Shown here: piece after piece, positions 478 to 58,645 of the stretch | Position numbering within the stretch: the first letter of the stretch is position 1 | How the letters are laid out: the number at the start of each line of letters is the position of its first letter | Assembly: GCA_963707935.1 (NCBI GenBank) | Contig: CAVPRN010000005.1 | Location: 1,426,837-1,490,836 of the forward strand | Direction: 5' to 3' | DNA length: 64,000 nt | Origin: an uncultured Acidobacteriota bacterium | GTDB taxonomy: Bacteria; Acidobacteriota; Thermoanaerobaculia; UBA5066; Gp7-AA6 | Program-made: the position numbers and the translations under genes | The notes under the pieces: generated by a model | The model's database searches: none | What the model saw: the letters and a program-made list of their open reading frames with translations, nothing else | Told to the model about the DNA's origin: nothing

Positions 478-493
478 TGATGCAAGCGCCTCA
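478..493. promoter_or_regulatory. class A palindrome site (TGATGCAAGCGCCTCA), in the divergent glgP/hsp20 promoter region
   Basis: One mismatch to TGAT-N8-ATCA. Its centre is about 62 nt upstream of the hsp20 ATG and about 76 nt upstream of the glgP ATG. It belongs to the recurring motif family described in the findings. Confidence 0.45.
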
Positions 494-547
494 TGGAGAA
501 ATCCGCGGCGCGGGGGAAACTCACGTCGTGAAAGCAAGGAGGACGTC

Positions 548-1045
548 ATGAATTTCAACCTGATCCGTCGCGAACCGACGTATCCCGCGTATCCGTTCTT
601 TCGTCCGTTCGGGGAGCAGCCCTATTTCCGTGAAATGGAGGAGATGTCCGATCGCCTGAACCGCCTCTTCGCGTACCCGCGTCCTTACGAGAAGGAAGCT
701 TTGAAGCTGGCGGAGTGGTCGCCGGTAGTCGACATCCAGGAGACGGAAACCGAGTACCTGGTGAAGGCCGAGCTTCCGGAGGTCCTGAAGGAGAACGTCA
801 AGGTCACCGTCGAGAATGGCGTCCTGACGATTCAGGGAGAGAGGAAGCAGGAGAAGGAGGAGAAGGGCAAGAAGTTCCACCGCATCGAGCGCTCCTACGG
901 CACGTTCCTCCGGACCTTCACGGTCCCCGAGGAAGTGGAAGCGACGAAGGTGGCGGCGGACTTCAAGGACGGCGTGCTCCGGATCCGCCTGCCCAAGACG
1001 GAGAAGCCCCGGACCAAGGCCATCGAGGTGAAGGTGGCCTCGTAA
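548..1045 (+). CDS. Hsp20/alpha-crystallin family small heat-shock protein
   Basis: 165 aa. Alpha-crystallin domain: WSPVVDIQETETEYLVKAELPEV..GVLTIQGER..ERSYGTFLRTFTVPE..DGVLRIRLPK. AAGGAGG lies 7 nt upstream of the ATG. Confidence 0.93.
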   Translation: MNFNLIRREPTYPAYPFFRPFGEQPYFREMEEMSDRLNRLFAYPRPYEKEALKLAEWSPVVDIQETETEYLVKAELPEVLKENVKVTVENGVLTIQGERKQEKEEKGKKFHRIERSYGTFLRTFTVPEEVEATKVAADFKDGVLRIRLPKTEKPRTKAIEVKVAS

Positions 1046-1515
1046 CTCCCCTCTCGGGGAGTCGGCCGCCGCACGGCGGCCTCGAAGCGGCCGGGTTCGC
1101 CCGGCCGCTTCCCTTTTCCTGGGTCACGCCGACGACGACGTTCGCGCCGAGCAGCTCGCTCGCAGTAGCGCGCCAGGTCCTCGTTGGAGAACTCGTCCCA
1201 GCCGCGGCAGGCGCCGTGCCGGACGGTCTGCGCGTCGCAGGCGAGTCCCACCCGGCACCGGACCTGCTCGGCGAGCTGCCAGAGGTTGGCGAGCTCCTCC
1301 ATCTGCGGCCGGGACAGGTGGGTGCTGCGGCCAAGCGCGTTCTTCCAGCGCCGATCGAACTCGGAGTCGGGCCAGCGGCGGAAGCCGCGGCAGAAGATCC
1401 CCTGCTCGGCGGCGATCTGGCACATCGAGTGCTCGTCGTCGGTGAGCCGGCGCAGTGCGTCTCGAAGGCGGTCGATCGCGTCGCGCCTCGACCAGACCGG
1501 CACCTGCCCGCTCAT
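895..1515 (-). CDS. conserved 5-Cys hypothetical protein, paralog of 32872..33276
   Basis: MSGQVPVWSRRDAIDRLRDALRRLTDDEHSMCQIAAEQGIFCRGFRRW...ACDAQTVRHGACRGWDEFSNEDLARYCERA aligns without gaps to the protein at 32872..33276. The ATG at 1515 overlaps the upstream stop (ATGA). The ORF closes only at 895, antisense through the hsp20 3' end and its terminator hairpins, so the true C-terminus is doubtful. Confidence 0.55.
   Translation of the reverse strand: MSGQVPVWSRRDAIDRLRDALRRLTDDEHSMCQIAAEQGIFCRGFRRWPDSEFDRRWKNALGRSTHLSRPQMEELANLWQLAEQVRCRVGLACDAQTVRHGACRGWDEFSNEDLARYCERAARRERRRRRDPGKGKRPGEPGRFEAAVRRPTPREGSYEATFTSMALVRGFSVLGRRIRSTPSLKSAATFVASTSSGTVKVRRNVP
1087..1119 (+). terminator. putative intrinsic terminator of hsp20
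   Basis: GCGGCCGGG-TTCG-CCCGGCCGC stem-loop followed by TTCCCTTTTCC. Two shorter hairpins (1045..1062 and 1064..1081) sit directly after the TAA stop. Confidence 0.5.
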
Positions 1516-2079
1516 GCCGCGGGTTCCGAGGGGCGCGCCGCCGGGCGCAGCGGATCGTCCAGCACGAGGTCGGGGAAACGGGCCCGGAACGACAGGGCGA
1601 CGTGGCAGCTCCAGCAGATCCGGTGGTGCGTCTCGAGAAGAGCGGGGAGCGACTCGGCGGCGATCTCCTCCCACTCCAGGGTCCGGCGGTCCGGCCCCAT
1701 CAGAGCGGGCCTGTGCTCGGTCCATCGGATCTCGCCGATGTCGCGGCCGCAGAGCTCGCAGTGGGCTCCCTCGTACCATCGGGCGAGGCGGCTTGCGGAC
1801 GAGACAGTCCTCGGGAGCTTCGACTTGCGCCAGACACTCCTGCCCGCAGTCGGAGCGCTCGGGCCAGCGAGAGCAGGACTGGAGGCGCGGCTCCGGCGTC
1901 CCCGACGATGTCGGTCGCGGCCGGCGCATGGCGTCGAGCTCGACGGCGACGGGCCTTCCCGTCTCGGGGCACGTCAGAACTCCCTTGCCCCGGTACCTGC
2001 GGTAGGAGCGCAGCCCGATCCAGAGGAGCGGAATCAACGACAGGACGAAGGCCGCCGCGAAGAGAAGAACGATTCGCAT
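1512..2079 (-). pseudogene. membrane-anchored multi-Cys (zinc-ribbon-like) hypothetical protein; frame broken once near 1785-1795
   Basis: The N-terminal frame reads MRIVLLFAAAFVLSLIPLLWIG..VLTCPETGRPVAVELDA..CSRWPERSDCGQECLAQVEAPEDCLVR. It continues in another frame as ARWYEGAHCELCGRDIGEIRWTEHRPALMGPDRRTLEWEEIAAESLPALLETHHRICWSCHVALSF. AAGGAGG precedes the ATG at 2079. The length is 568 nt, which is not a multiple of 3. Confidence 0.6.
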
Positions 2080-2127
2080 GACCGCCTCCTTCACCCGCTA
2101 CTGTAGGGAGGCGGCCGGCCTCCGCCA

Positions 2128-2143
2128 TGATGCAAGCGAATCA
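2128..2143. promoter_or_regulatory. class A palindrome site (TGATGCAAGCGAATCA)
   Basis: Exact TGAT-N8-ATCA and identical to the site at 51430. Its centre is about 56 nt upstream of the ATG at 2079. It generates the spurious 'MMQAN' ORF at 2127..2327. Confidence 0.55.
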
Positions 2144-2819: not shown

Positions 2820-3541
2820 GACGCCACCGGGACTCGTTCCATCGCCGCGGCCTCCCGGGAGGGGCGCCGCGCCTCGAGCCAGGCGCACCATCGGGCCAAC
2901 CCCTCTCCGGTCCGCGCGGAGACCGGCAGCAGGGCGGGCTTCGGATTCACGCGCGCGAGCGCGTCGCGGATCGCCTCGACGCGCACGTCGGGCAGATGCG
3001 GCAGCAGGTCGATCTTGGTCAGAAGCACGAGGTCCGCCTTGCGAAACATGACCGGATACTTCAATGGCTTGTCCTCTCCTTCCGTGACGGAGAGGGCGAC
3101 GACGTTGGCCGCCTGGCCGAGATCGTAGATTGCGGGGCAGACCAGGTTGCCGACATTCTCGATGAAGAGGTAGTCGAGGTCCTGCCACGGAAAGTCGTGC
3201 AGAGCGCGGTGGACGAGCTCCGCGTCCAGGTGACAGGCGGAGCCGGTCGTGATCGGCACCGACGGAATTCCCGCCGCCTCGAGCCGCTCGGCGTCCCGGG
3301 TGGTCTCGAGATCCCCCGCCAGAGCCCCCAGGCGCGCGCCTCGGGGCAGGCGGCGCGCGGTCGCCTCCAGGATCGCGGTCTTACCCGCGCCCGGCGAGCC
3401 CATCAGGTTGACGGCGACGACGCTCCACTTCTCGAAGTGCTCCCGGTTATGCGCCGCCGTGCGATCGTTGCCCGCCAGGATCCGGTCGTGCACGTCGATC
3501 GGAACCAGCTCCGGGTCTCCGCAGCCACAGGTGCCACACAT
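2816..3541 (-). CDS. hypB: hydrogenase nickel incorporation GTPase HypB
   Basis: 241 aa. N-terminal MCGTCGCG metal motif, P-loop GSPGAGKT, ENVGNLVCP and LTKIDL. The start overlaps the hypA stop (TGATG). Confidence 0.93.
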   Translation of the reverse strand: MCGTCGCGDPELVPIDVHDRILAGNDRTAAHNREHFEKWSVVAVNLMGSPGAGKTAILEATARRLPRGARLGALAGDLETTRDAERLEAAGIPSVPITTGSACHLDAELVHRALHDFPWQDLDYLFIENVGNLVCPAIYDLGQAANVVALSVTEGEDKPLKYPVMFRKADLVLLTKIDLLPHLPDVRVEAIRDALARVNPKPALLPVSARTGEGLARWCAWLEARRPSREAAAMERVPVAS

Positions 3542-3882
3542 CACGCCACCTCCATTTCGACTCGCTCCAGAACGATCTCGTCTCCCGCGGAAAGCCGCGC
3601 CCTCCCGCCGCAGCGCGGGCACTCGAGGATGGCCCCCCGGGGGATCGACTGGCGGCACTCGGCGCAGTCCCAGCGCGCCGCGACCGGCAGGATCGTCAGC
3701 TTCGCTCCGGCGCAAATCGTCCGCTCCCGAAAAGTCTCGTAGGCCGTCGCGAGCAGGTCGGGCTCCACTCCCGAGAGCTCGCCGATCGAAACGAGGACGC
3801 CGTGAACCGCCCTCGCCTGGCGCTCGCGCGCCAGTTCCTCGATCCTCTCGAGGAGCGCGCCGACGATCGAGTACTCGTGCAT
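3541..3882 (-). CDS. hypA: hydrogenase maturation nickel metallochaperone HypA
   Basis: 113 aa. MHEYSIV N-terminus and Zn motif CAECRQ...CPRCGG. Confidence 0.92.
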   Translation of the reverse strand: MHEYSIVGALLERIEELARERQARAVHGVLVSIGELSGVEPDLLATAYETFRERTICAGAKLTILPVAARWDCAECRQSIPRGAILECPRCGGRARLSAGDEIVLERVEMEVA

Positions 3883-3887
3883 CCGCC

Positions 3888-4719
3888 TCACCTCTCCCCG
3901 AAGCGCGCGGGCCGGCGCTCGAAGAAGCCCGCGAGCCCTTCGGCGAAGTCGGATCGGTCGGCGATTCGGGCGAGCTCCTCGAGCTCCCGGTCGAGATGCC
4001 AGTCGAGGCGGTCGACACCGGCCGCCTGATGGACGAGCCGCTTGGCGACCCCGTAGGCCTCCGTGGGACCCTCCGCCAGCTGCCGGGCGACGCCGAGCAC
4101 GTCCTCGCGAAAGGTCTCTTGCGGAAAGACCTCGTTGATCAGGCCGATCTCGAGCGCCTTCGAGGCGTCGAGACGGGGATTTCGAAGCACGAGCTCGAGC
4201 GCCCGGCGCAGTCCGAGCAGGCGCGGCAGGAAGAAGGTCGAGCTCTCGGCTCCGGTCAGCCCCGTCTTGCCGTAGGCCCATTCGAAGCTCGCCCGCGGCG
4301 ACGCGTAGACCAGATCGCAGGCCATGGCGATCCCGAAGCCTCCGGCCGCGGCCATCCCGTCCACGGCGGCGAGAAAGGGCTTGGGCGCCCGCTTGATCTC
4401 GGAGATCGTCGAATGGATGTACTCGAGGATCTGCCGGAAGACCTCGCCGTAGCCTCCCGGCGCGTCGCGGTGGGCCTGCAGGTAGGAGAGCTCGGTTCCC
4501 TCGCCCCCGGCGCGGATGTACTTCAAGTCGGCGCCGCTGCAGAAAACGCCCCCGGCTCCGGCGAGCACGACCGCAGCGCACCTCGGGATCGCGCGCGCAT
4601 TGGAGCCCCGCCTTCCGGAAGTCGCGCGCCGTCTCGACGTCGAGAGCGTTGTACCGCTCGCGCCGGTCGATCGTGATCGTCGCGACTCCGCCCTCGCGTT
4701 CGAGGCGGATGTGGCTCAC
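3888..4719 (-). pseudogene. enoyl-CoA hydratase/isomerase (crotonase) fold protein, candidate HypX C-terminal module; frame broken near 4570
   Basis: VSHIRLEREGGVATITIDRRERYNALDVETARDFRKAGLQCARDPEVRC | VVLAGAGGVFCSGADLKYI...AAVDGMAAAGGFGIAMACDLVYA...FEWAYGKTGL. The GTG at 4719 overlaps the upstream stop (GTGA). The length is 832 nt. Confidence 0.7.
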
Positions 4720-5427
4720 GAAGCGGCCTCCGAAACCCGTTCGAGGGCCGGCGCGCCGGCGATTTGGGCGATCGCGTCGGTGAGCAGCGGGCCCCAGGCC
4801 GTCGCGAGCATCCACTCCTGGTGCGCGTAGGCGTAGGCGTTCAGAGCGTGCTCCGCTCCCGCCGCCGAGAGCTCCACGGCGAGCGGCGCAACCGGATAGG
4901 GCCGCGAGCGCCGGAGGATCGGTCCCGCGTCGAGCTCGTCGGTGACCCGGTGCGAAGTCGCGCGGGTCTCTGGCTCCCCGGCGCGAATCGCGTCGCGCAC
5001 CGCGCGAAGACCCGGATAGAGCGGCCGCCCGTCCGGCCCGCGCCGCGAGAGGTCGCTCCCGTGGACGTTGACGAGGCGTCCGCGCGTAGGCCTCGAGGAG
5101 CGGCTCGGTGGCGATGTAAAGATAACTTGACATCAGCAGGAGGTCCGGCCGCAACGGCGCGAGCAGGCGCACCGTGCGGCGGTCGAAGGCGCGGCGGACC
5201 GCGAGGTCGGCGAGCCCCGCATGCTGCCAGGCGTAGAAGCGGCGGATGAGATTGGGAACGACCGGCACACCCGCCGCGTCCAGCCGCGGATCGAAGAATC
5301 CCTCTTCGGTCGAGAGCACGCCGACGAGCTCGAAGGAGCCGCCGTGCCCGTCGAGCAGCTCCGCGAGGCCCGGCGCCCGCCGCGACGTCAGAAGGGCGAC
5401 CCGCAGGGGGGCGCGTGCGTTCAGCAT
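4716..5427 (-). pseudogene. formyltransferase-like protein (PurN/Fmt fold), candidate HypX N-terminal module; frame broken near 5075-5085
   Basis: MLNARAPLRVALLTSRRAPGLAELL...DLLLMSSYLYIATEPLLEAY | LVNVHGSDL...TSHRVTDELDAGPIL. The N/H/D formyltransferase signature (VNVHGS ... DAGPIL) is present. The ATG at 5427 overlaps the hypE stop. The length is 712 nt. Confidence 0.65.
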
Positions 5428-6467
5428 ATGCGCGGAAGCGGCTCGCCCTCGGGCTCGGCGAGCAGACGCCGGCCGAAGCCGGTGTCCAGAATGACGTTGC
5501 CCGGCCTCTCGGCGAGACAGGTCCCCACGATCGCGGCCTCGCGCCCCTGCGGGTGGGAGCGCAGCGCCTCGAGCACGCTCTCGGCGGCCTCCGGCCGCAC
5601 GCCGAGCACGGCCTTCCCTTCGTTGGCGACGTGGATCGGATCGATGCCGGTCAGCTCCGCCGCCGCCCGCACCGCCTCGGTCACGGGGATGGCGGACTCT
5701 TCCAGCAGGATTCCGACGCCGCTCTTGCCCGCCATCTCGTGGAGCGCCGAGGAGAGGCCGCCGCGCGTCGGGTCCTTCATGGCGACGACGCCTCCGTCCC
5801 GGGCGCCGAGCGCCGCGCGGACCAGGCCGTTGATCGGAGCGACGTCGGAGGCGAGGTCCCCCTCGAGCTCGAGCCCGTGCCGCGCCGAGAGGATCGCGAA
5901 GCCGTGGTCCCCGATCGTGCCGGTGACCAGAATGCGGTCGCCCGGTCGCAAGTCCCGCGTCGGGGACGACGCGGTCGGTCAGGGCGACACCGGCCGTGTT
6001 CAGGACGATCCCGTCGATCTCGCCGCGCCCCATGACCTTCGTGTCGCCCGTGACGACCGGAGCGCCGGCCTCGCGGCAGGCGAGGCGCATCGACTCCGGA
6101 GAATCCGCTCGAGGTCGGGCCTGCGGGAAATCCGTCCTCGAGGATCACGGCGCAGGTCAGGCCCAGGACCTCGGTCGCGCCCATCATCGCGAGGTCGTTG
6201 ACCGTGCCCGAGACCGCGAGCCGCCCGATGTCTCCGCCCGGGAAGAAGATCGGGTGCACGACGTGGGAGTCGGTCGTCAGGACCAGCCATCGGTCGCCGA
6301 GACGCATCGCGGCGCCGTCGTCCATCGCGGCGAGGCCGATCCCGTCCGGAGGCGCCGGCGCGGCGAAGCCCCGGAGGAAGACCTCCTCGATCAGTCGGCG
6401 CATCGCCCGACCGCCGGCGCCCTGCTTCAGGGAGACGCGTTCGACCAGCGGTTCCTTCGCGAGGCAT
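5421..6467 (-). pseudogene. hypE: hydrogenase maturation carbamoyl dehydratase HypE; at least 3 frame breaks (about 6125, 6095 and 5950); start uncertain
   Basis: Segments lie in three frames: VSLKQGAGGRAMRRLIEEVFL..TDSHVVHPIFFPGGDIGRLAVSGTVNDLAMMGA..AVILEDGFP | PDLERILRS | MRLACREAGAPVVTGDTKVMGRGEIDGIVLNTAGVA | GDRILVTGTIGDHG...EGEPLPRIC. The last segment carries the C-terminal PRIC motif. Confidence 0.88.
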
Positions 6468-6469
6468 GC

Positions 6470-7618
6470 TCACGCGAGCGCCTCCAGATCCGGATGCCCG
6501 CCGTACTGGTGCCAGATCTTGCAGGTTCCCTCGGAGGACACCATGCAGGCGCCGACCGGGTTGTCCGGGACGCATTCCTTCCCGAAGAGCGTGCAGTCGG
6601 AGGGAGACGCGATGCCCGACATGATGTCGCCGCAGATGCAGCTCGCGACGAGCGTGGGCGGCCCGTAGTCCCACAGCCCCGCCAGGTCGATCGGGAAGCG
6701 CCGGCGCGCGTCGAGGTGCGCCCATTCCTCGCGCAGGCGCAGGTTGCCGTTGGGCACGTGAGCGATGCCGCGCCAGCGTCCTCCGACCGGCCGGAAGACG
6801 CTCCAGAGCTCCTCCTGCGCCCGACGGTTCCCCTCGCGTGTGACGCAGCGCGGGAACATGTTGACGACGCGCGGCGTGCGGTCGCGCACGAGCTCGAGCA
6901 GCCTCGCGAGTCCCGCCAGGATGTCGAGCGGCTCGAATCCGGCGACGACGACCGGGATCCCGTGGCGCGCGACGAACGGCTCGAAGATCCCCCAGCCCGT
7001 GATCGTGGCGGCGTGGCCGGCGGCGAGGAACCCCTCGACGCGCGTCTCGGGCATCTCCGCCACGATCTCCATGACCGGCGGGATGTACTTGTGCGCCGAG
7101 AGGACCGAGAAATTCTCCGGGACGGGGCCGCGCACGACGGCGGCGGTCGCGACGGCCGTCGTCTCGAAGCCGGTCGCGAAGAAGACGACGGGCTTCTCCG
7201 TCGCCGCGGGCGATCTCCACGGCCTGGGCGGCGCTGTAGACGACGCGCACGTCGGCCCCCTCGGCCTGCGCGTCGGCGAGCGACTGCACGGTGCCGCGCA
7301 CCTTCACCATGTCGCCGTAGGTCGCGATCGTCACTCCCTGGCGGGCGAGGACGACGCCTTCGTCGACTTCCGGCATGTCGGTGATGCAGACCGGGCAGCC
7401 CGGGGCCCATGATCACGTTCAGGTCCTTCGGAAACGACGCGCGCAGCCCGAACTTGGCGATCGCCTGCTCGTGGCTGCCGCAGACGTGCATCACCGAGAC
7501 CGGCGATCGGCCGATTTCTCCGGTCACCCGGGCGATCGTGCTCGGCGAGCCCGCGCGCCAGCCCCGGATCCCGGAAGCGCAGCTTCCCCAGAGAATCCCG
7601 CGAGAGAATCGGGCTCAC
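6470..7618 (-). pseudogene. hypD: hydrogenase maturation factor HypD; 3 frame breaks (about 7530, 7395 and 7190)
   Basis: Segments: MSPILSRDSLGKLRFRD | SPVSVMHVCGSHEQAIAKFGL..NVIMGPG | MPEVDEGVVLARQGVTIATYGDMVKVRG..VVYSAAQAVEIA | SVLSAHKYIPPVMEIV..GFEPLDIL..ACMVSSEGTCKIW. The GTG start overlaps a TGA (GTGA). Confidence 0.9.
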
Positions 7619-7908
7619 GACGGCTCCCTCCCGCGCCGTCGCCTTCGATCTCTCCCCGGACGTCCGCGGCCATCAAGTCGTCCTTCGACGCTTCGGCGAG
7701 CAGGGTCTCGTAGAGCGCCAGCGTCTCGCCGATCTCCTCCGGCGGGATCCGCCGGATCGCGAAGCCGACGTGGTTCAGGATGTAGTCGCCCGCCTCGACG
7801 GGCTGGTCCACCACGTCCAGGCGCACGCGGCGGGACACGCCGAAGAAGTCGACCGTCGCGATACAGTCCCTCGACCGACACGACGCGGCCCGGCACGCCG
7901 AGGCACAT
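7615..7908 (-). pseudogene. hypC: hydrogenase assembly chaperone HypC; frame break near 7865; 3' end ambiguous (stop at 7615 or 7524)
   Basis: MCLGVPGRVVSVEG | IATVDFFGVSRRVRLDVVDQPVEAGDYILNHVGFAIRRIPPEEIGETLALYETLL. The ATG at 7908 overlaps the hypF stop. Confidence 0.8.
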
Positions 7909-10196
7909 CAGAGACCTCCTCGCCTGCGCGCGAGTGCCGCCGCAACGAGCGCCTGACCGATCGCGAGGCCCCCGTCGCCGGGAGGCACTTCGCCGTGGAG
8001 GAGAACCCGGAAATCGGGAGACAGCTCGGAGGAGACCCGCTCGGCGAGCAGGGCGTTCTGAAAGCATCCGCCCGTCAGGACCACCGGGAGCGCTCCCTGC
8101 CGCTCGGCGCAGAGGCGGACGAGCCGCGCGGTCGCGTCGGCGACGGTGTTGTGAAAGCGGCCGGAGATCGCCGCGGGCGAGGCTCCGGACACGAACGCTT
8201 CGACGGCGGCGCGCAGAGCGGGGCGCAGGTCGAGCGTCGCGATGTCGCCGGTCTCGACTTCGAAGGGGAAGCGGCCCGCCTCCGTCTCGTCCGCCGCCGC
8301 GTTCCACTCGAGCGCGACCTGCCCCTCGTATCGCGACTCGGGCCGGTTCAGAAAGAGCGCCCCGAAAGCGTCGAAGTAGCGGCCGACCCCGCGGGCGAGA
8401 GGCGCCCCGACGCCGCTCGGAACGAGCCTTCGGACCGCCGCGACGCGGTCCGGGGCGATCGCGCGGAAGAGGGGAAAGGCCTCCAGAGGCGGAGCGCCTT
8501 CGTATGCGTCGTCGAGCAGCGAAAGCGCGATGCGCCAGACCTCCCGGATCGCCGTCTCTCCCCCCGGCAGCACGATCGGGCGCCACGTCGCGAGCCGCTC
8601 GAAGCCACTCCGGGCGCGCGAGCAGGATCTCGCCTCCCCAGGACGTGCCGTCGGTCCCGTAGCCGGTGCCGTCGTAGGCCACACCGAGCACCGGGCTCTC
8701 CAGGCCGTGCTCGGCCATCGCGCTCGCGACGTGGGCGTGGTGGTGCTGCACGCCGACAGCGGCGACCCCCGTCCGGCGGCGCGCGTACAGCGTCGAGGCG
8801 TACCGCGGATGGAGGTCGTGCGCCACGATCTCGGGGCGGATCCCGACGAAGCGCTCCAGCCTCGAGACGGCCTCCTCGAACGCCTCGACCGTCTCCAGAC
8901 TCTCGAGGTCCCCGATGTGCGGGCCCGGATAGAGAGCGTCGCCCGCCGCGAGGCAGAAGGTGTTCTTCAGGTGCCCGCCGCAGGCGAGAACCGGTCTCTC
9001 GAAGGGACTCGGCGCGGGGAGGGCGCGCGGCACGTAACCGCGCGATCGGCGAAGCACCGTCGGTCTTCCGGCGATCACGCGAGCGACCGAATCGTCGCAG
9101 GGCGACTCGATCTCCCGGTCGTGCGTCAGGAAGATGTCGGCGATGGCACCGAGCTTCTCGAGCGCCCGCGCGTTGTCGTGCGCGATCGGATCGCCGGCGA
9201 GGTTGCCGGAGGTCATGACCAACGGGCGGTCCGTCTCCGAAAGCAGCAGGTGGTGGAGCGGGGTGTACGGCAGCAGCAGGCCGATCCACGGGTTGCGCGG
9301 GGCGACCGGCTCGGCGATCCCGCCGCCCGTCGCGCCGAAGCGCGAGGACGATGGGGCGCTCGATCGAGGTCAGCAGGCGCTCCTCCTCCGGGGAGAGGCG
9401 AGCGACTCGACGAGCGGCCTCGAGGTCCTTCACCATGACGGCGAAGGGCTTCTCCTCCCGCCTCTTGCGGTCGCGAAGGCGCCGGACCGCGAGATCCGAG
9501 GCGGCATCGCAGGCCAGGTGGAAGCCGCCGAGCCCCTTGACGGCGACGAGGAGTCCGGCTTCCAGGGCGCGCGCCGCCTGCCGGATGGGGTCTTCCCAGC
9601 CGAGGTTCTGGCCGTCCGGTCCGACCGCGGAGAGAACCGGCCCGCAGGCCGGGCAGGCGTTGGGCTGCGCGTGAAAGCGCCGGTCGCCCGGGTCCTCGTA
9701 CTCGCGCCGGCAAGCGGCGCACATCCGGAACGGGGCCATCGTCGTCGCGGCCCGGTCGTACGGCACGTCGCGCGCGATCGTGAAGCGCGGGCCGCAGTTG
9801 GTGCAGTTGGTGAAGGGATAGCGGTAGCGCCGGTCTCGCGGGTCGAAGACCTCGGACAGGCAGTCGGCGCACGTCGGAAGGTCCGGCGGGAATCGAGACC
9901 CGCCGCTCTCCCGTCTCCCGGCTCTCGACGATCACGAATTCGGAGGCGGGCTCCGCCGGTATCGGCGTCCAGTCGAGCTCCCGGATCCGGGCCGCCGGAG
10001 GAGAATCCGCGGCGAGCGAGGCGAGGAAGGCTTCGATCGCCGACGCGTCGCCGAAGGCCTCGATGGTGACGCCGCGGCTGTGGTTGGACACGCGCCCGGC
10101 AAGGCCGCTCTCGCGCGCGAGCCGGTAGATCCAGGGACGGAAGCCGACTCCCTGCACCGTTCCCCGCACCTCGATGCGCCGCCCGGTCCGGGTCAT
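7908..10196 (-). pseudogene. hypF: carbamoyltransferase HypF; 3 frame breaks (about 9895, 9340 and 8615)
   Basis: Acylphosphatase-like domain: RIEVRGTVQGVGFRPWIYRLA. Zn fingers: CAACRREYEDPGDRRFHAQPNACPACGP. YrdC-like domain: LLVAVKGLGGFHLACDA. LVMTSGNLAGDPI follows. C-terminal Kae1-like domain: VGVQHHHAHVAS..VVLTGGCFQN. Confidence 0.9.
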
Positions 10197-15173: not shown

Positions 15174-15247
15174 GGGACGGAGCGTAAGAGGCAGTCCTCG
15201 GGCGAGGCCTGATGCGAACACACCGGAAGGCGGCGAGCTCCAAAAAA

Positions 15248-15263
15248 TGATGCCAATTCATCA
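15248..15263. promoter_or_regulatory. class A palindrome site (TGATGCCAATTCATCA)
   Basis: Perfect TGATG-N6-CATCA. It sits in the gap between the hydrogenase operon (minus strand) and ORF 15309 (plus strand). Confidence 0.6.
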
Positions 15264-15554: not shown

Positions 15555-15574
15555 CCCTCTTTCCTCGATCCTCC

Positions 15575-15588
15575 ATGACGCCCGTCAT
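15575..15588. promoter_or_regulatory. class B box ATGACGCCCGTCAT (FNR/Dnr-geometry palindrome)
   Basis: Perfect 5-N4-5 inverted repeat with TGA-N6-TCA geometry. Its centre is about 34 nt upstream of the ATG at 15615 and about 43 nt upstream of the ATG at 15624. Confidence 0.55.
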
Positions 15589-20691: not shown

Positions 20692-20707
20692 TGATGAGTT
20701 CGGCTCA
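20692..20707. promoter_or_regulatory. class A palindrome site, degenerate (TGATGAGTTCGGCTCA)
   Basis: One mismatch to TGAT-N8-ATCA. It sits in the divergent region between the radical-SAM-like gene and the nos super-operon. Confidence 0.35.
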
Positions 20708-32820: not shown

Positions 32821-32836
32821 TGATTCGAGTGCATCA
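32821..32836. promoter_or_regulatory. class A palindrome site (TGATTCGAGTGCATCA)
   Basis: Exact TGAT-N8-ATCA. Its centre is about 43 nt upstream of the ATG at 32872. Confidence 0.55.
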
Positions 32837-34485: not shown

Positions 34486-34501
34486 TGATGTAATCGCATC
34501 A
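34486..34501. promoter_or_regulatory. class A palindrome site (TGATGTAATCGCATCA)
   Basis: Perfect TGATG-N6-CATCA. It lies in the divergent promoter between the USP-(PAS-LuxR) unit and the PNPOx-like operon, 43 and 53 nt from the two ATGs. Confidence 0.6.
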
Positions 34502-38979: not shown

Positions 38980-38995
38980 TGATCCATTTTCATCA
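38980..38995. promoter_or_regulatory. class A palindrome site (TGATCCATTTTCATCA)
   Basis: Exact TGAT-N8-ATCA. Its centre is about 56 nt upstream of the ATG at 38931. Confidence 0.55.
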
Positions 38996-50109: not shown

Positions 50110-50125
50110 TGATTCAACCGCATCA
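50110..50125. promoter_or_regulatory. class A palindrome site (TGATTCAACCGCATCA)
   Basis: Exact TGAT-N8-ATCA. Its centre is about 75 nt upstream of the USP ATG at 50042. Confidence 0.55.
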
Positions 50126-50310: not shown

Positions 50311-51138
50311 TCATGGAACGGCGACACAGTACCTCGCCCCTCCTTCCCGTTTCCCATCGTAGAGGGCGCGGTCGGCCTGCTCGAAGAGCTCGTCCGGGCC
50401 GGAGAAAGGCGGCGCGCTCGCGATGCCGATCGTGACGGTGACGCGGGGGGAATTCGTCCCCTCCTCGGAGCCGGACGCGAGCGATTCGAGAAGACCTCGG
50501 GCCACCCGGCTGGCGGCTTCCGTGTCCGCGCGCGGCATCACGACCGCAAACTCGTCACCGCCCCAGCGACAGGCCAGGTCCCCGACGCGCTTGTTCCGCT
50601 CGAGGCTCCGGGCGACCGCAACCAGCGCAGCGCTTCCCACCGAATGACCCCAGCGATCGTTCACGAGCTTGAGGCGGTCGACGTCGATGAGCAGAAGCGA
50701 GAGCGGCTCACCGTCGCGCTCGACCTCTTCGAGCTGACGCCGAAAGTGCCTCTCGAAGGCGCGAGCGTTCAATAGGCGCGTGAGCTCGTCGTGGTCGGCG
50801 AGGATCTCGTATCGGTCCCGGCTGCGGCGAAGACGGTCGGCCCGCAAGCCGGTGAGTCCGCCGAAGATCCCGAAGACCAGACAGGCGCCCAGGAGCATGT
50901 AGAGGTAGAAAAAAGCGTTCGCCCGGAACTCCGCCACGAAGGAACCGCCGCGCAGGATGTGGCGCAGGAGGAGGGCACCGGCGGGGGCGCCGACGCCCAA
51001 CGAGGCTGCCAGAAGGGCATTGCGGAGAGACGCCCGGAGTGTCCCGCGCCGCAGGAGACGGCCGCCCGCGAGCGGACGCTCCGGCGCCCGCCCCTGCGCC
51101 AGATCTCTTCCGAGACTTCCTGTTCGAGCGGACGGCAT
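50311..51138 (-). CDS. diguanylate cyclase (GGDEF domain) with an N-terminal 2-TM region
   Basis: LLIDVDRLKLVNDRWGHSVGSAAL..RWGGDEFAVVM..ADRALYDGKREG. The ORF is open up to 51399 and the ATG at 51138 was chosen, so the start is uncertain. Confidence 0.85.
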   Translation of the reverse strand: MPSARTGSLGRDLAQGRAPERPLAGGRLLRRGTLRASLRNALLAASLGVGAPAGALLLRHILRGGSFVAEFRANAFFYLYMLLGACLVFGIFGGLTGLRADRLRRSRDRYEILADHDELTRLLNARAFERHFRRQLEEVERDGEPLSLLLIDVDRLKLVNDRWGHSVGSAALVAVARSLERNKRVGDLACRWGGDEFAVVMPRADTEAASRVARGLLESLASGSEEGTNSPRVTVTIGIASAPPFSGPDELFEQADRALYDGKREGGARYCVAVP

Positions 51139-51429
51139 TTCCCTGTCGTCCGGGCTTCTCAACGGCGGGCCGCCTTGCGCCCGAAGCGCGCGCGCCCGGC
51201 TCTCATCCTTTGACACAGGCCATCGGCCGCCGGAACGGCTCGGAGCCGCCCCCTCGAATCTCGACGCGGAAGTTCCCGAACACGAGGCCCCGCCTATCGG
51301 CGATCGAGATGAGTTCGTTCCGGAAGGCCACGAGCTGCTCTCCTTGAAGTCTCGTCGGCGAGCGGGACGGTCCGGCCTCGTTCCTTCGCAGCCGGTCACA
51401 CGAGTCTAGCGCCATGGCGCGCCTGCCTG

Positions 51430-51445
51430 TTGATGCAAGCGAATC
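51430..51445. promoter_or_regulatory. class A palindrome site (TGATGCAAGCGAATCA)
   Basis: Exact and identical to the site at 2128. It lies upstream of the GGDEF gene and generates the spurious 'MMQAN' ORF at 51430..51807. Confidence 0.55.
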
Positions 51446-51757
51446 ATCTCCTGCGCCGCTCCTCTCGTATCATCGCGGTCGAGCGCGCGGCGAAGACGCT
51501 GACCAACATCCGCTCGATTTCCATCGAGAACTTCGAAGCGAAGGTCGAGACGAGCAAGATCCCGCGCTATCGCGTCAACGCAAAGATCTCGTCTCTCCTG
51601 GAGTGGACGGAGACTCCGGCGACGCGCCGGCGATCCTCCGCGGCGAAGGAACGACCTTCGTTCATAGGTCTTCCCGAGGCCCTGGGAGACGACATTCCCG
51701 GGGCTCGGCCGGCAGTCGGCCGGAGGGTCACCGTCCCGAGGATTGGCGTGGACGGGG

Positions 51758-53458
51758 TCAGAGATAGGCGTTTGCCGCGTACTGCTCGACCATGCGGTGC
51801 GTGTTGAAGAAGGAGGCGTTGAAGGCGATGGTGCGCCGCATGACGTCGATCCAGGCCGGACGGTCGCCGTAGTAGAGAGGGAGGATCACTCGCTCGAGCT
51901 TGTCGTGCAGCTCGGCCGCGTCTCGAGCGTTCTCCTCTTCGGATTCGGCAACCTCGCTGCCTTTCTCGGCGCCGATGGACCATCCGGTGACTCCTTCCAG
52001 ATGCCCTTCCACCCACCAGCCATCCAGAATGCTCAGGCTCGGGACACCGTTGTGGGCCGCCTTCATTCCCGACGTTCCCGACGCTTCCAGGGGGCGCAGC
52101 GGCGTGTTGAGCACGAGGTCGACGCCCGAGAGGATCAGCCGCGCCAGATCGATGTCGTAGTCCTCGAGGTAGACGACGGCCAGGCCGTCTCCGAGCCGCC
52201 CGATGGAGCGGAAGAGGCGGCGGATGAGCTCCTTTCCTCCCGCGTCCCGGGGATGGGCCTTGCCGGCCAGGACGATTTGAACGCGGCCGGCAGTCCGGGC
52301 GATCCCTCGCAGCCGCTCCGGGTCGGACAGGACGAGGTCGGCCCGCTTCCAGACGGTGGCCCGCCGGGCGAATCCGATCGTGAACGCATCGGCGTCGAGG
52401 ACGCGGGAGGTCCGCCGGCGCACTTCCTCGATCAGTTGCGCCTTGGCCTCGGCGTGCGCCCGCCAGAGTTCGTCCTGAGGGATCTGAATCGCATAGCGCA
52501 GGGAGAAAGGGTCGCGCGCCCAGCCTGGAATGTGGCGGTCGTAGAGACGCCGGAAGGGTTCGCAGGTCCACCGAAAGGAGTGAACCCCGTTGGTGATCGA
52601 GTCGATCGAATAGCCGGGGAACATCCTCTGAGAGACTTCGCCGTGCCGCTTGGCCACGCCGTTGACGTAGTGGGAGAGATTCAGGGCGAGCAGCGTCATG
52701 TTGAGGCGGTCCCTCCCTCCCAGTTTGCGGAGCTCCTCGTGGGGGATCACCTCCCCGAGAACCTCCGTCACGAGCCCGTAGTCGAACTGATCGTGGCCCG
52801 CCGGAACCGGCGTGTGCGTCGTGAAGACGCATTTCTTCCGAACGTCCTGGATGCCCGGCGCGACGGCGGACGAGTCGGGCTCCTCCGCCAGAAGCTCGAG
52901 TGCGAGCAGGCTCGCATGCCCCTCGTTCATGTGGTAGCGCTCGATCTGGCCGTAGCCGAGGGCTCGGAGCATGCGGACCCCGCCGATCCCGAGGACGATC
53001 TCCTGGGAGAGGCGATACCGCTCGTCGCCCCCGTAGAGCACGGCGGTCAACTCCCGATCGGACGGGGAGTTTTCGGGGACGTTCGCGTCGAGCAGAATGA
53101 GCGGAACGACGTGCCCCGCGATTCCGGCGATGTCGTATTGCCAGGCGCGAAGGGCGACCGGGCGCCCTTCGATCCGGACATGGACGATCGGCTCGAGCGG
53201 ACGGACCACGTCCTCCGGCTTCCAAACGACGGGCTCCTCGCTCTGGTTGCCCAGCGCGTCGAGCTTCTGGCGGAAGTAACCCTTCACGTAGAGCAGACAG
53301 ACTCCCACCGCCGGGAACTTCAGGTCGGCGAAAGAGCGTAGCGTGTCGCCGGCGAGCACGCCGAGCCCGCCGCTGTAGATCGGCAGGCGCTCGTCGACGC
53401 CGACTTCCATCGAGAAATACGCGATCCTGGCGGACTGGATCTCCGGTGCGTCGCTCAC
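51758..53458 (-). CDS. glgP: alpha-glucan phosphorylase (GlgP family)
   Basis: 566 aa and intact. AYFSMEVG..LPIYSGGLGVLAGD..HMNEGHA..VFTTHTPVPAGHD..NGVAKRHG..TNGVH..EASGTSGMKAAHNG (PLP-Lys region). Confidence 0.93.
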   Translation of the reverse strand: MSDAPEIQSARIAYFSMEVGVDERLPIYSGGLGVLAGDTLRSFADLKFPAVGVCLLYVKGYFRQKLDALGNQSEEPVVWKPEDVVRPLEPIVHVRIEGRPVALRAWQYDIAGIAGHVVPLILLDANVPENSPSDRELTAVLYGGDERYRLSQEIVLGIGGVRMLRALGYGQIERYHMNEGHASLLALELLAEEPDSSAVAPGIQDVRKKCVFTTHTPVPAGHDQFDYGLVTEVLGEVIPHEELRKLGGRDRLNMTLLALNLSHYVNGVAKRHGEVSQRMFPGYSIDSITNGVHSFRWTCEPFRRLYDRHIPGWARDPFSLRYAIQIPQDELWRAHAEAKAQLIEEVRRRTSRVLDADAFTIGFARRATVWKRADLVLSDPERLRGIARTAGRVQIVLAGKAHPRDAGGKELIRRLFRSIGRLGDGLAVVYLEDYDIDLARLILSGVDLVLNTPLRPLEASGTSGMKAAHNGVPSLSILDGWWVEGHLEGVTGWSIGAEKGSEVAESEEENARDAAELHDKLERVILPLYYGDRPAWIDVMRRTIAFNASFFNTHRMVEQYAANAYL

Positions 53459-53511: not shown

Positions 53512-53527
53512 TAATGCGTTCGGATCA
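53512..53527. promoter_or_regulatory. class A palindrome site, degenerate (TAATGCGTTCGGATCA)
   Basis: One mismatch to TGAT-N8-ATCA. It lies in the divergent glgP / CBS promoter, about 60 nt from each start. Confidence 0.35.
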
Positions 53528-53579: not shown

Positions 53580-54077
53580 ATGAAAGTCAACGCGATCATG
53601 ACTCACGAGGTGACCCCGTGTGCGCCCGAGACGAGCCTGTGCGAAGCCGCGCGGACGATGCGGGAGATCGATTCGGGAGTCCTTCCCGTGCTTCGGAACG
53701 GCAAGGTTGTGGGGGTCATCACGGACCGGGACATCTGCATGGCGTTGGGAGAGTGCGAGCAGGGCGCGCCACGGATGAGCGTCGGCGAGAAGATGAGTCG
53801 CAGCGTGTTCTCCTGCTCCGAGGAGGACAGCATAGAGGAGGCGTTTCAGACCATGAAGGCCAAGCGCGTGCGCCGGCTTCCGGTTCTGGACGCGAAGCAA
53901 AGGCTGCGGGGCATGCTCTCGATGAACGACGTCATTCTCCACGCCGAGGAATCGGGCAACGACCGGGCCGTCTCATACGAGGACGCCGTCCGCACCCTGC
54001 AAGCCATTTGCGAGCACCGTTATCCCCCCCGGCCGAAGAAGCCGGAGGACGTGACGGAGCTTGCGCGATACGTCTAG
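53580..54077 (+). CDS. CBS-domain pair protein
   Basis: 165 aa. GGGAGG RBS. IMTHEVTPCAP..SGVLPVLRNGKVVGVITDRDI..VRRLPVLDAKQRLRGMLSMNDV. Confidence 0.88.
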   Translation: MKVNAIMTHEVTPCAPETSLCEAARTMREIDSGVLPVLRNGKVVGVITDRDICMALGECEQGAPRMSVGEKMSRSVFSCSEEDSIEEAFQTMKAKRVRRLPVLDAKQRLRGMLSMNDVILHAEESGNDRAVSYEDAVRTLQAICEHRYPPRPKKPEDVTELARYV

Positions 54078-54086
54078 GAGGCAACC

Positions 54087-54551
54087 ATGATTCCGAGCAC
54101 GGCCAAGAGCGATCGGCAGATCGAGCCGGACGTCCATCGGGAGTCCCGGTGGGTGGGCCAGACCGAGACCGGGGTCGCGGCCGACGGGGGCGTGAACGCG
54201 GTCGAGCCGCCGGGAGGCATCGAGCGGAGCGACATCGAGATCGCCCGAGCCGTCCGCCGCGCCTTCGAGTGGGACGAGTTCGTGCCCCGAGCAACGATCC
54301 GCTCGACCGTGTCCCGCGGATGGGTCACGCTCGAGGGAACCGTTCCGGTCCTCCAGCAGAAGGAATATGCCGAGCGGGTCGTCCGGCTCCTGTCGGGCGT
54401 CAAAGGGATTCACAACCGACTCGGCATCGCCCCGTCGAACGTGGATTCCGACGGCTCGCGCACGCCGTCAGACAACGCTCCGGGAATCCCCGGGGTTCGC
54501 GGAGCGTCTATCGAACGGAACCGGTGGCGGACGGGAAAGGAGATCCGATGA
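54087..54551 (+). CDS. BON-domain protein (OsmY-like); the C-terminal third looks degenerate or frameshifted
   Basis: DIEIARAVRRAFEWDEFVPRATIRSTVSRGWVTLEGTVPVLQQKEYAERVVRLLSGVKGIHNRL. The tail after about 54430 has no BON-like sequence in this frame. Confidence 0.65.
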   Translation: MIPSTAKSDRQIEPDVHRESRWVGQTETGVAADGGVNAVEPPGGIERSDIEIARAVRRAFEWDEFVPRATIRSTVSRGWVTLEGTVPVLQQKEYAERVVRLLSGVKGIHNRLGIAPSNVDSDGSRTPSDNAPGIPGVRGASIERNRWRTGKEIR

Positions 54552-55018
54552 GAGTCAGCGACGTCATGTGCCGCCCGGTCGTCTCCTGCACGCCGGAGAC
54601 GAGCCTTTCCTCCGCTGCGCGGATGATGGGGGAGAACGACTGCGGAGCGCTTCCGGTCTTGCGCGGAAAGACCGTGGTGGGAATGGTGACCGACCGAGAT
54701 ATCTGCGTGGCGATCGGGAAACGGAAGAAAGCCGCGTCCGAGACGACAGTCCGGGAGATCTTCAGCCCCGGCGTCGTGACGTGCTCGACGAGCGACGACG
54801 TCCGCAGCGCGCTCGCGACGATGGCGAGCAGGCACGTTCGGCGTTTGCCGGTCCTCGATGCGGATGGGGCCCTTCAGGGAATTGTGTCGCTCGACGACCT
54901 CATGCTCCGGGCGGAAGAACCCAGGCCGACCGGGGCACCGCCCGACTTGTCCCACGGGGACGTGGTGACCGCCTTTCGAAGCATCTGCGGAAAGCGGCCT
55001 CTCCGCAAGCCGGCGTGA
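54548..55018 (+). CDS. CBS-domain pair protein
   Basis: 156 aa. VMCRPVVSCTP..CGALPVLRGKTVVGMVTDRDI..VRRLPVLDADGALQGIVSLDDL. ATGA overlap with the upstream gene. Confidence 0.88.
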   Translation: MRVSDVMCRPVVSCTPETSLSSAARMMGENDCGALPVLRGKTVVGMVTDRDICVAIGKRKKAASETTVREIFSPGVVTCSTSDDVRSALATMASRHVRRLPVLDADGALQGIVSLDDLMLRAEEPRPTGAPPDLSHGDVVTAFRSICGKRPLRKPA

Positions 55019-57235: not shown

Positions 57236-57603
57236 CTGATCGTTCCCCAGGCCTCGCCGCGAAGACGCGGCAGCTTGTGCGAGCTCATCACGATCAGGTC
57301 GATCCGATTGCCCTCCGCGTAGCGCAGGATCTCGTCCACGCGGCGCCCGTAGACCAGTTCCGCGCGGGCCCGCGCTCCCTTCCTCCGGAGCTCGTCCACC
57401 GACCCTTCCAGCTTCTGCCGCGCGCTCTTCTCGAGCTTGCGGTAAAAGGCGGCGAAAGCGCCCGGCGCGCCGGCGTCGATCCGCTCGATGACGTGCAACA
57501 GCGTCGTTTCCCCCTTCGCGGAGGCGGCCAGACGCACGGCGACTCCCGCCGCGCGGCGGCTTCGGGGGGTGAAGTCCGTCGGAACGAGGACGCGGCGGAA
57601 CAT
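57187..57603 (-). CDS. universal stress protein
   Basis: 138 aa. MFRRVLVPTDFTPRS...DLIVMSSHKLPRLRGEAWGTISYKVGLLARCPVLLV. Confidence 0.9.
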   Translation of the reverse strand: MFRRVLVPTDFTPRSRRAAGVAVRLAASAKGETTLLHVIERIDAGAPGAFAAFYRKLEKSARQKLEGSVDELRRKGARARAELVYGRRVDEILRYAEGNRIDLIVMSSHKLPRLRGEAWGTISYKVGLLARCPVLLVK

Positions 57604-58125
57604 CACTTCTCCGCGCGGTGGGACCGGATGTACTCCTGCGCGAAGGCGAGCAGGTTCGGGCTCTTGAGCCCGATGCGCCGGGCTTCCTCCTCCGCCTTCT
57701 CCTCGGTCCAGCCGTCCACGAGAACGCGCCGGATCATCCAGAAGGCTCCGACGCGATTCCCGGAGGCGCAGTGGACGAAGAGGGGGAAGACCCCCGGATC
57801 GGCCGTGGCCGCGAGGAAGGCGTCCGCCTGCTCGACTTTCGGATCCGCGCCCGAGACCGGGATGCTCACGAATCGGAGCCCGAGCTTCCGGACCGCCGCG
57901 GACTCGGCCTCGAGATCCTGCTCCGAGGGCGGACGCAAGTCGATCACGGTCCGAATCCCCTCCTCGCGCAGGCTCGTGAGCTGCGCCTCCGTCGGCTGGC
58001 CCCCCGTGCAGACCCGCTCGTCGACACGCACGAAGTGATCGATCTCCTCGACCGGTCTCGCGATGCCGACCGAGGCCGCGAAGAGCGCCGCGACCGCGAC
58101 ACGCCGCGAACCGTGTGCGCGCCAT
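57603..58125 (-). pseudogene. secreted Cys-based phosphatase-like protein (DUF442/PTP-loop HCxxGxR); frame break just after the start codon
   Basis: MARTRFAA | VAVAALFAASVGIARPVEEIDHFVRVDERVCTGGQPT...FVHCASGNRVGAFW. The length is 523 nt. Confidence 0.6.
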
Positions 58126-58127
58126 CC

Positions 58128-58574
58128 CTAACCCCTCTCCAGGTAGTCGCGGACGAAATCCGCTTCCGTGAGGATCCCGACCAGGTGCATTCCCTCGACC
58201 ACCGGCAGGCACCCGATCTTGTTCTCGAGGAGGAGCGCGGCGGCTTCGGCGAGCCGCGCTTCCGGCTCGACGGTTTCCGGCTCGATCGTCATGATCTCCC
58301 GGACCTTGCGCCCGCGCAGCAGGTCCCGTTCGACGCTCATCGGCAACTCGTCCATCCGGCCGAGAACGGATCTCGCAAGGTCCCGATGGGAAACGAGCCC
58401 GACGAGGTCTCCCTCGCGATCCACGATCGGCACGTGGCGCACCCGCCGAGCGTCCATCAGATCCTCGAGAGCGACCAGGTTGTCCCCCGGCCCGAGCGTG
58501 AAGACCTTCTCGGTCATCAAGTCCCGCACCAGGCGTTCGCGTTGCCGGGCGAGCGGCCTCTCCTTGGCAGCCAT
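58128..58574 (-). CDS. CBS-domain pair protein
   Basis: 148 aa. LMTEKVFTLGP..VRHVPIVDREGDLVGLVSHRDL..IMTIEPETVEP..IGCLPVVEGMHLVGILTEADF. Confidence 0.88.
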   Translation of the reverse strand: MAAKERPLARQRERLVRDLMTEKVFTLGPGDNLVALEDLMDARRVRHVPIVDREGDLVGLVSHRDLARSVLGRMDELPMSVERDLLRGRKVREIMTIEPETVEPEARLAEAAALLLENKIGCLPVVEGMHLVGILTEADFVRDYLERG

Positions 58575-58629
58575 CTCGACCTCCTTTCTCCTCTCGACCC
58601 CATCTCAACGCGCCGGGTCTGCCCGAACA

Positions 58630-58645
58630 TGGTGCGTTCGCATCA
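58630..58645. promoter_or_regulatory. class A palindrome site, degenerate (TGGTGCGTTCGCATCA)
   Basis: One mismatch. Its centre is about 63 nt upstream of the CBS ATG at 58574. It is divergent from the BON gene. Confidence 0.4.

Follow-up and report, generated by a model that had tools for sequence, protein, structure and literature searches.

A 16-bp palindrome, TGATGC-RWWY-GCATCA, recurs upstream of genes in a 64-kb stretch of DNA from an uncultured Acidobacteriota bacterium (contig CAVPRN010000005.1; this whole stretch is referred to as the window). Judged from its sequence context, it is probably the operator of an autoregulated, one-component class II activator of the PAS-LuxR type, which is encoded in the same window (33296-33952, minus strand) and would act at about ten promoters. 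The motif is strongly enriched, is placed between genes, is conserved in related genomes, is linked genomically to the gene of this transcription factor (TF) and stands at a fixed distance from a -10-like hexamer. From these patterns we infer the identity of the binding protein, activation rather than repression, and the signal. A first-pass annotation of the window had proposed the TF site of an uncharacterised regulon, with the consensus TGATG-N6-CATCA in at least 11 promoter regions. The regulon proposal is supported by the conservation, the intergenic confinement and the fixed -10 distance. The recurrence in promoters also held, but about ten regions are well supported, and the palindrome has longer half-sites than described, in the 6-N4-6 form TGATGC-N4-GCATCA.

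Motif, enrichment and placement

Motif counts were compared with those in 100 dinucleotide-preserving shuffles of the window. The exact pattern TGAT-N8-ATCA occurs seven times (at 2128, 15248, 32821, 34486, 38980, 50110 and 51431) against 0.11 expected, a count that 0 of 100 shuffles reach. TGATG-N6-CATCA with up to one mismatch occurs nine times against 0.53 expected, and TGATGC-N4-GCATCA with up to two mismatches 11 times against 1.1. Because the window has about 70% G+C, few palindromes containing A/T are expected by chance. Copies of the looser pattern with one mismatch form a much noisier class of modest excess (17 versus 5.8 expected), some of them being intragenic. All seven exact copies reported in the first-pass annotation are present, the last one at 51431 instead of 51430; 15248 and 34486 are perfect TGATG-N6-CATCA palindromes, and 2128 and 51431 are identical over 16 nt, as described there. 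Its one-mismatch copies at 478, 20692, 53512 and 58630 exist as well, but 20692 is weak, six further copies (3, 5120, 24638, 34713, 39284 and 40049) were absent from its list, and its 17-bp variant at 56012 has no matrix support.

A position weight matrix (PWM) trained only on sites of related loci outside the window gave the full 16-bp consensus. Each half-site is 88-99% conserved, the 4-bp centre is degenerate (R-W-W-Y) and the flanks carry no conservation. Scored with this matrix, the window contains eight strong sites (22-27), followed by 478, 53512, 15210 and 20692 (Table 1), then 34713 at 8.4, with all others below 6. The motif thus has the form of a LuxR/NarL-type operator: inverted half-sites of about 6 bp, an overall length within 16-20 bp and a variable centre.

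Genes were called with a codon model self-trained on the window, combined with Pfam and NCBIfam, since long open reading frames (ORFs) are unreliable in DNA of about 70% G+C. Taking long ORFs as genes was rejected: two ORFs of about 800 aa are chimeras of different genes or frames. The 849-aa ORF at 3541-6090(-) matches hypA at its C-terminus only and has enoyl-CoA hydratase similarity in another frame, while the 815-aa ORF at 11077-13524(-) merges the N-terminus of the hydrogenase large subunit with cytochrome b. All ten good sites of the window lie outside the codon-model genes, which leave 17.4% uncovered (P ~3e-8), in agreement with the intergenic placement first described; likewise, 134 of the 141 strong sites in related loci lie outside called genes.

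Short, GC-poor intergenic palindromes in a genome of 70% GC could be repetitive extragenic palindromic (REP)-like elements, and the copies might otherwise be a dispersed repeat resembling miniature inverted-repeat transposable elements (MITEs), or a chance pattern. These explanations are effectively refuted. The flanks of the window copies are unrelated to each other, none of the direct-repeat families checked in the window covers any site, and an Rfam search gave no match at gathering score, so that the earlier view of the copies as neither REP nor MITE holds. Moreover, both half-sites are fixed around a variable 4-bp centre, orthologous promoters retain the sites in genomes whose proteins are only 55-85% identical, and the shuffles stay below the observed count. 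A structured-RNA reading also fails: there is no Rfam match, and the predicted -10 comes downstream of the sites.

A PAS-LuxR gene linked to the motif across related loci

The candidate binder is a 218-aa protein with a PAS domain and a GerE/LuxR helix-turn-helix (HTH) domain by Pfam; it reached no family cut-off in NCBIfam. Its HTH is similar to the DNA-binding domains of LiaR, VraR, DosR and NarL (DosR E 1e-7), and its sequence similarity to proteins of known structure is confined to this domain. Domains of this type bind palindromes of 16-20 bp as dimers. In the alignment with NarL, its base-contacting residues K188, V189 and K192 correspond to R190, N191 and Q194, and these three do not vary among orthologues. 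In the PAS domain, C50, C65, C69 and H119 (a Cys-x14-Cys-x3-Cys + His spacing) are invariant in 109 close homologues and also in 126 family representatives at 33-61% identity, which makes this Cys3-His set a candidate set of metal or Fe-S ligands. The AlphaFold model of the protein is of low confidence, and its predicted local distance difference test (pLDDT) score of 64 makes it too uncertain for the Cys3-His geometry to be judged. A Foldseek search returned the PAS + LuxR-HTH architecture only, with 3clo, VqmA and EL222 as the best matches. In the literature, we found no description of Fe-S PAS-LuxR sensors or of this Cys3-His PAS subfamily.

Related loci were gathered in two ways. A genome scan with the erythromycin esterase of the window gave 80 loci, mostly horizontally scattered homologues from other phyla. 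L004, the only one of the 80 that also encodes PAS-LuxR orthologues, was alone informative, and the remainder served as negative controls. Retrieval with the PAS-LuxR protein then provided two long contigs (L081 and L082) and 73 metagenome contigs (L083-L155). The protein has hundreds of close relatives, of which those at 81-82% identity are named Thermoanaerobaculia. The resulting sets comprised 59 orthologue loci (289 kb, many of them contigs of only 1-5 kb), 16 distant-homologue loci (98 kb) and 29 GC-matched control loci (410 kb) with a GC content of at least 0.60 and no PAS-LuxR gene. A search for relatives in an annotated plasmid collection gave trivial matches only, and exact-protein look-ups of the esterase and of the protein labelled P0001 gave no match.

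With up to one mismatch, the orthologue loci contain 103 sites (39 exact), distributed over 41 of the 59 loci, against three sites in two of the 29 control loci. When all 6-N4-6 palindromes in the orthologue loci were counted, TGATGC ranked first with 39 copies, followed by a runner-up with 8. The same mismatch count found a single site in the distant-homologue loci, which had suggested that these lack the motif. This was overturned by matrix scoring: at 34-37% protein identity, the rate of strong sites in the distant loci is 7.1 per 100 kb, compared with 0.5-2.4 for the controls, and four of their seven strong sites adjoin the TF gene. Sites in these loci often carry the half-site variant GCACTA, and the loci differ in GC content. 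Related genomes keep the motif at orthologous promoters; one contig (L088) is syntenic with the window over the nos cluster, the Cys-rich gene and the PAS-LuxR gene, and keeps the sites at the orthologous promoters.

The locus L004, from a 71% GC Acidobacteriota metagenome-assembled genome (MAG), has eight sites (up to one mismatch) in 21 kb. It shares with L081, L082 and about 15 short contigs the layout [site]-universal stress protein (USP)-PAS-LuxR1-[two tandem sites, 18-20 bp apart]-PAS-LuxR2, in which the second paralogue is 52-62% identical to the first. The window holds the first unit only, and the second PAS-LuxR paralogue is absent from its 64 kb. Across related loci, the genes most often found behind sites are the PAS-LuxR gene (34 cases), its USP gene (32) and Cys-rich homologues (19), followed by other USPs, DUF5335 and Hsp20. 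As a separate observation, the tandem copies before PAS-LuxR2 always number two, as at 16241/16261 in L004, 10675/10694 in L081, 863/881 in L090, 1349/1369 in L100 and others.

These data also bear on whether the motif is bound by a different TF, encoded outside the window, with the PAS-LuxR genes being only conserved members of its regulon. Linkage by itself cannot tell a regulator from a target, and the commonest genes behind the sites (USP, PAS-LuxR and Cys-rich) are simply neighbours. We nonetheless regard such an unlinked factor as unlikely. The motif accompanies PAS-LuxR proteins over large distances in sequence and GC content; even where the protein is only 34-37% identical and the contig differs in GC content, it stands beside the TF gene. 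In addition, both PAS-LuxR paralogues have sites of their own, the 6-N4-6 palindrome suits a dimer of LuxR-type HTH domains, and the 289 kb of orthologue loci contain no further recurrent TF gene apart from a BldC-type HTH gene that itself lies behind a site.

The window also encodes a Crp/Fnr-family protein (18684-19370, plus strand), which the first-pass annotation had named beside the PAS-LuxR protein as a possible binder. CRP-family sites are 16-bp palindromes beginning with TG (NtcA: TGTA-N8-TACA), TGATG-N6-CATCA has the same 5-N6-5 length as TGTGA-N6-TCACA, and the crp-like gene belongs to the operon downstream of site 15248; the motif could on these grounds be an unusual CRP-type box. 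That prospect appears very remote given that no orthologue of this protein occurs in any of the 59 orthologue loci, so that of the two proposed binders linkage favours the PAS-LuxR protein. The recognition helix, E-T-A-I-R, is FNR/FixK-like without an equivalent of Arg180, so that a G would be expected at 4.5 bp from the dyad; the motif carries a T there in 99% of sites, and the earlier remark that the geometry is unlike a CRP/FNR box is thus borne out. The genomic context of the protein (ScdA/NnrS and nos) is typical of Dnr/NnrR-type regulators responsive to nitric oxide (NO). The FNR-type box TTGA-N6-TCAA has no exact copy in the window, and its one-mismatch copies are at chance level. The BldC-type HTH protein (20851-21084) was also considered as the binder and was rejected; it is a small MerR-like protein of monomer type, and its own gene is among the targets in relatives.

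Promoter geometry and mode of control

The hexamer TANNNT starts 23-24 nt past the motif in 22 of 205 flanks, with two or fewer cases at every other offset, and the A/T content peaks at the same positions. The strict pattern is present in 24 of 158 gene-facing flanks versus 5 of 124 others, and a relaxed pattern in 55 of 158 versus 11 of 124. No conserved -35 hexamer was found, and in relatives an extended -10 (TGnTAnnnn) occurs at this offset of the USP promoters. Taking the hexamer as the -10 element would place the centre of the site near -42.5, overlapping the -35 region, which is the arrangement of a class II activator. For comparison, the DevR boxes of Mycobacterium tuberculosis are centred at -42.5 and -63.5 (PMC3177182).

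Distances from site centre to start codon range from 44 to 77 nt. Three start codons, those of the USP gene at 34450, the Cys-rich gene at 32872 and the ORF at 15173, lie 36-37 nt past the motif and directly behind the -10-like hexamer, a spacing that suggests three leaderless transcripts. The hexamers are TAGCCT before the USP ATG, which lies 36 nt after site 34486; CAGACT at offset 24 of site 32821, with the ATG at +36; and TACGCT at offsets 24-29 of box 15210, with ATG 15173 at +37. The remaining start codons have a Shine-Dalgarno sequence and lie 54-77 nt from the site centre. Site 2128 is followed by TACAGT at offset 23, then GGAGG and the ATG at 2079, and site 58630 by TGAGAT at offset 23, then GGAGG and an ATG. 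Site 51431 has TAGACT on its left and TATCAT on its right at offsets 22-23. Centre-to-start distances are 57 nt for site 38980, 61-62 nt on the two sides of site 53512, and 63 nt from site 478 to the Hsp20 ATG, which has a Shine-Dalgarno sequence.

The same geometry speaks to whether the site is instead a repressor operator, at which the PAS-LuxR protein or another factor would block the promoters until a signal arrives. Palindromic operators near start codons are typical of repressors too, the centre-to-start distances of 44-77 nt would fit, and a clean -10 at the fixed offset is present in a minority of flanks only. Repression is nevertheless disfavoured by the -10 spacing, and we consider it rather improbable: the -10-like hexamer follows the site at a distance of 23-24 nt instead of lying beneath it, an extended -10 occurs without a conserved -35 hexamer, and the arrangement is the standard one for class II activators, common to DevR.

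In the model that we favour, the palindrome would be the operator of a dimeric LuxR-type (GerE HTH) factor, most likely the one-component PAS-LuxR protein of the window, for which the predicted target sequence is TGATGCAAACGCATCA. Bound about 42.5 bp upstream of the transcription start, the factor would replace the -35 element and act as a class II activator. The position of its gene behind the USP gene, under a site of its own, points to positive autoregulation, and its PAS Cys3-His set may ligate a metal or Fe-S centre serving as a sensor of O2, NO or redox state. The system would in that case be a one-component functional analogue of the mycobacterial DosS/T-DosR dormancy switch.

Several findings weigh against this model. 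Only some 15% of gene-facing flanks have the strict TANNNT pattern, and a number of flanks, such as the PNPOx side of site 34486 and the right side of site 58630, show no recognisable -10. The window sites are single, unlike the tandem boxes of DevR (PMC3177182). Were the PAS-LuxR genes no more than conserved targets of a different factor, they would be linked to the motif as well, and the Cys3-His set could be a structural Zn site. Furthermore, several of the predicted target genes are split between frames, namely those of the hydrogenase large subunit, HypD, HypE, HypF and the P-type ATPase, with frame breaks located in 3541-13524 and 38993-41983. For the [NiFe]-hydrogenase large subunit, one frame covers profile positions 1-139 and a different one 151-508; only fragments of HypD, HypE and HypF were found, and the N- and C-terminal halves of the P-type ATPase lie in different frames. 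These breaks may stem from indel errors in the long-read assembly of the MAG, or from pseudogenes and decay.

Predicted regulon and its relation to known systems

Within the window, the predicted regulon would include Hsp20, several USP, CBS and BON proteins, two glycogen phosphorylases, the hydrolase-phosphoribosyltransferase (PRTase) with the erythromycin esterase, the PNPOx-like protein, the GGDEF protein, dodecin, two Cys-rich proteins, the [NiFe]-hydrogenase operon and the ScdA/NnrS-Crp operon. The closest functional analogue is the regulon of DosR/DevR, a NarL-family response regulator of M. tuberculosis, yet the system described here is without the receiver domain, the kinases and the box sequence that define it. 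Both have an HTH of the LuxR/GerE class and a palindromic operator with a W-rich centre; judged by the -10-like hexamer, the site centre here would also fall near -42.5. Tandem boxes about two helical turns apart also occur here, at some promoters of relatives. The regulator gene lies behind a USP gene in one unit under its own site, much as in the co-transcribed unit Rv3134c-devR-devS, which has the same order and likewise a site of its own. The shared regulon classes are Hsp20, many USPs, PRTase/erythromycin-esterase-like proteins, P-type ATPase and PNPOx-like proteins, and DosR-controlled hydrogenases are known in M. smegmatis.

The differences are equally defined. A PAS domain takes the place of the receiver domain and is fused to the HTH as a one-component protein, and no histidine kinase gene stands beside the PAS-LuxR gene in the window, L081 or L082, whereas the DosR system has DosS/DosT. 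The Dev box TTSGGGACTWWAGTCCCSAA (core GGGACT-WW-AGTCCC) is unrelated to TGATGC-N4-GCATCA, and DosR/DevR belongs to Actinomycetota, in contrast to the Acidobacteriota origin of the window. DevR promoters need tandem boxes (PMC3177182); most promoters of the window carry one box.

Among other proteins of related architecture, EL222 (LOV-HTH), VqmA (PAS-HTH) and the Bacteroides protein 3clo are the best structural matches noted above, and PAS/LOV-LuxR regulators of the EL222 and VqmA type bind DNA as signal-induced dimers. FG214 is likewise a signal-induced DNA-binding dimer, with HTH-PAS order and heme b under bis-His ligation (PMC13060918). Its domain order is reversed relative to the PAS-LuxR protein, and the cofactors of these proteins are flavin, 3,5-dimethylpyrazin-2-ol (DPO) or heme b, as opposed to the invariant Cys3-His set found here. 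We know of no natural stress regulon and no operator of the TGATGC-N4-GCATCA type for EL222, VqmA, 3clo or FG214.

The Streptomyces PAS-LuxR regulators of the PimM family are pathway-specific activators of polyene biosynthesis with the operator CTVGGGAWWTCCCBAG. They share with the present system the PAS-LuxR architecture, a 16-nt palindromic operator and its WW centre; the half-site differs. In the lxa (low-oxygen-activated) locus of Burkholderia cenocepacia, USP, alpha-crystallin (Hsp20), storage-polymer and regulatory genes are clustered, and a palindrome recurs at about 17 intergenic points (PMC3721108). The resemblance to the window lies in this clustering of stress genes with a recurrent intergenic palindrome. 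The lxa motif is TGA-N6-TCA, of FNR geometry, and was attributed to a CRP/FNR protein (PMC3721108). This Anr/FNR-like motif was rejected as the identity of the present one, in which TGA and TCA are separated by N10 and the linked regulator is of LuxR type.

Because the closest known systems differ in these ways and our literature searches found no description of this motif or of PAS-LuxR stress regulons, the system is best classed, from sequence comparison, as a LuxR-type activator regulon that appears new in its operator, sensor module and phylum. A broader proposal, to which we give slightly less than even weight, concerns a widespread Cys3-His PAS-LuxR sensor family, which comprises at least about 126 clusters at 50% identity. 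Its members in soil Acidobacteriota (Thermoanaerobaculia and relatives) would switch on, through the operator TGATGC-N4-GCATCA, a dormancy and persistence programme of chaperone, USP, CBS and BON proteins, glycogen mobilisation and an H2-uptake hydrogenase. It would then represent an independent one-component equivalent of DosRST in Actinobacteria, and its Cys3-His PAS domain may be a new type of metal or Fe-S sensor of O2, NO or redox state. If this is true, a DosR-like dormancy programme arose outside Actinomycetota with a different input module and operator.

Acidobacteriota are among the most abundant soil bacteria, and to our knowledge almost nothing is known of how persistence is regulated in them. 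The analysis yields a testable operator, a candidate sensor-regulator with a conserved Cys3-His signature and a defined set of targets, and the same elements recur in many soil metagenome contigs. The matrix could be used for predicting regulons in hundreds of MAGs and for reading soil metatranscriptomes.

The sites of the window and the two genes of the regulator unit are listed in Table 1. The divergent gene pairs glgP/Hsp20, glgP/CBS, USP/PNPOx and CBS/BON that the first-pass annotation had named are correct by Pfam.

Table 1. Palindrome sites and regulator genes in the window, with their neighbouring genes (PWM, matrix score)
Feature	Position	Strand	Genes and context	Basis
Moderate site TGATGCAAGCGCCTCA	478..493		divergent: glgP (DUF3417 N-terminus, 2-409 -) / Hsp20 (548-1045 +)	PWM 16.8, Pfam
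Strong site	2128..2143		upstream of ORF 895-2079(-), which contains a Cys-rich paralogue	PWM 24.7
Weak second box CGGTGTGTTCGCATCA (read on the - strand)	15210..15225		proximal to the hydrogenase-side promoter	PWM 12.8
Strong site, perfect TGATG-N6-CATCA	15248..15263		divergent: hydrogenase operon (15173 to 11077, -) / operon 15309-19370 (+)	PWM 24.8, Pfam
Weak site	20692..20707		variant radical-SAM gene (19392-20627 -) / BldC-family HTH gene (20851-21084 +), then nosZ	PWM 9.8, NCBIfam
Strong site	32821..32836		upstream of Cys-rich 134-aa gene (32872-33276 +)	PWM 23.2
PAS-LuxR regulator gene	33296-33952	-	69 bp downstream of the USP gene, same strand	Pfam GerE + PAS
USP gene, first of the USP-PAS-LuxR unit	34022-34450	-		Pfam Usp
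Strong site, perfect TGATG-N6-CATCA; putative autoregulatory site	34486..34501		divergent: USP-PAS-LuxR / PNPOx-like (34547-34999 +)	PWM 24.6
Strong site	38980..38995		upstream of hydrolase-PRTase (37528-38932 -) and erythromycin esterase (36191-37531 -)	PWM 22.1, Pfam
Strongest site	50110..50125		upstream of USP (49575-50042 -) and CBS (49120-49578 -)	PWM 26.9, Pfam
Strong site	51431..51446		divergent: GGDEF (50311-51399 -) / dodecin (51430-51807 +)	PWM 23.5, Pfam
Moderate site	53512..53527		divergent: glycogen phosphorylase (51758-53458 -) / CBS-BON-CBS (53580-55018 +)	PWM 15.3, Pfam
Strong site	58630..58645		divergent: CBS-PTPase-USP (58574 to 57187, -) / BON (58795-59265 +)	PWM 24.9, Pfam

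Orthologous sites to the strongest one, at 50110, are present in L088 and L089. The two Cys-rich paralogues, at 32872-33276 (+) and at about 1134-1488 within ORF 895-2079 (-), are about 130 aa long and 40% identical; both stand behind strong sites, and neither has a match in Pfam or NCBIfam. The operon 15309-19370 (+) on the right of site 15248 consists of a small ORF, ScdA/NnrS, an FAD oxidoreductase and the Crp/Fnr gene. On the left, the hydrogenase operon is headed, before the small subunit, by the gene of a 160-aa protein (14691-15173, minus strand) that carries a dense cysteine motif, CCAKFSAKTCCCPCN, and matches no family.

Both genes that flank the weak site 20692 (variant radical-SAM and BldC-type HTH) have orthologues with strong sites in L117. 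The BldC-family gene encodes a small MerR-like HTH protein of 77 aa and lies directly upstream of nosZ (21086-23044); its L117 orthologue, 83% identical, heads an operon behind a perfect copy of the motif. The nos cluster itself (21086-32743), with nosZ, a Rieske protein and ABC-type NosDFY-like genes, adjoins the predicted regulon genes, an adjacency that is syntenic in L088.

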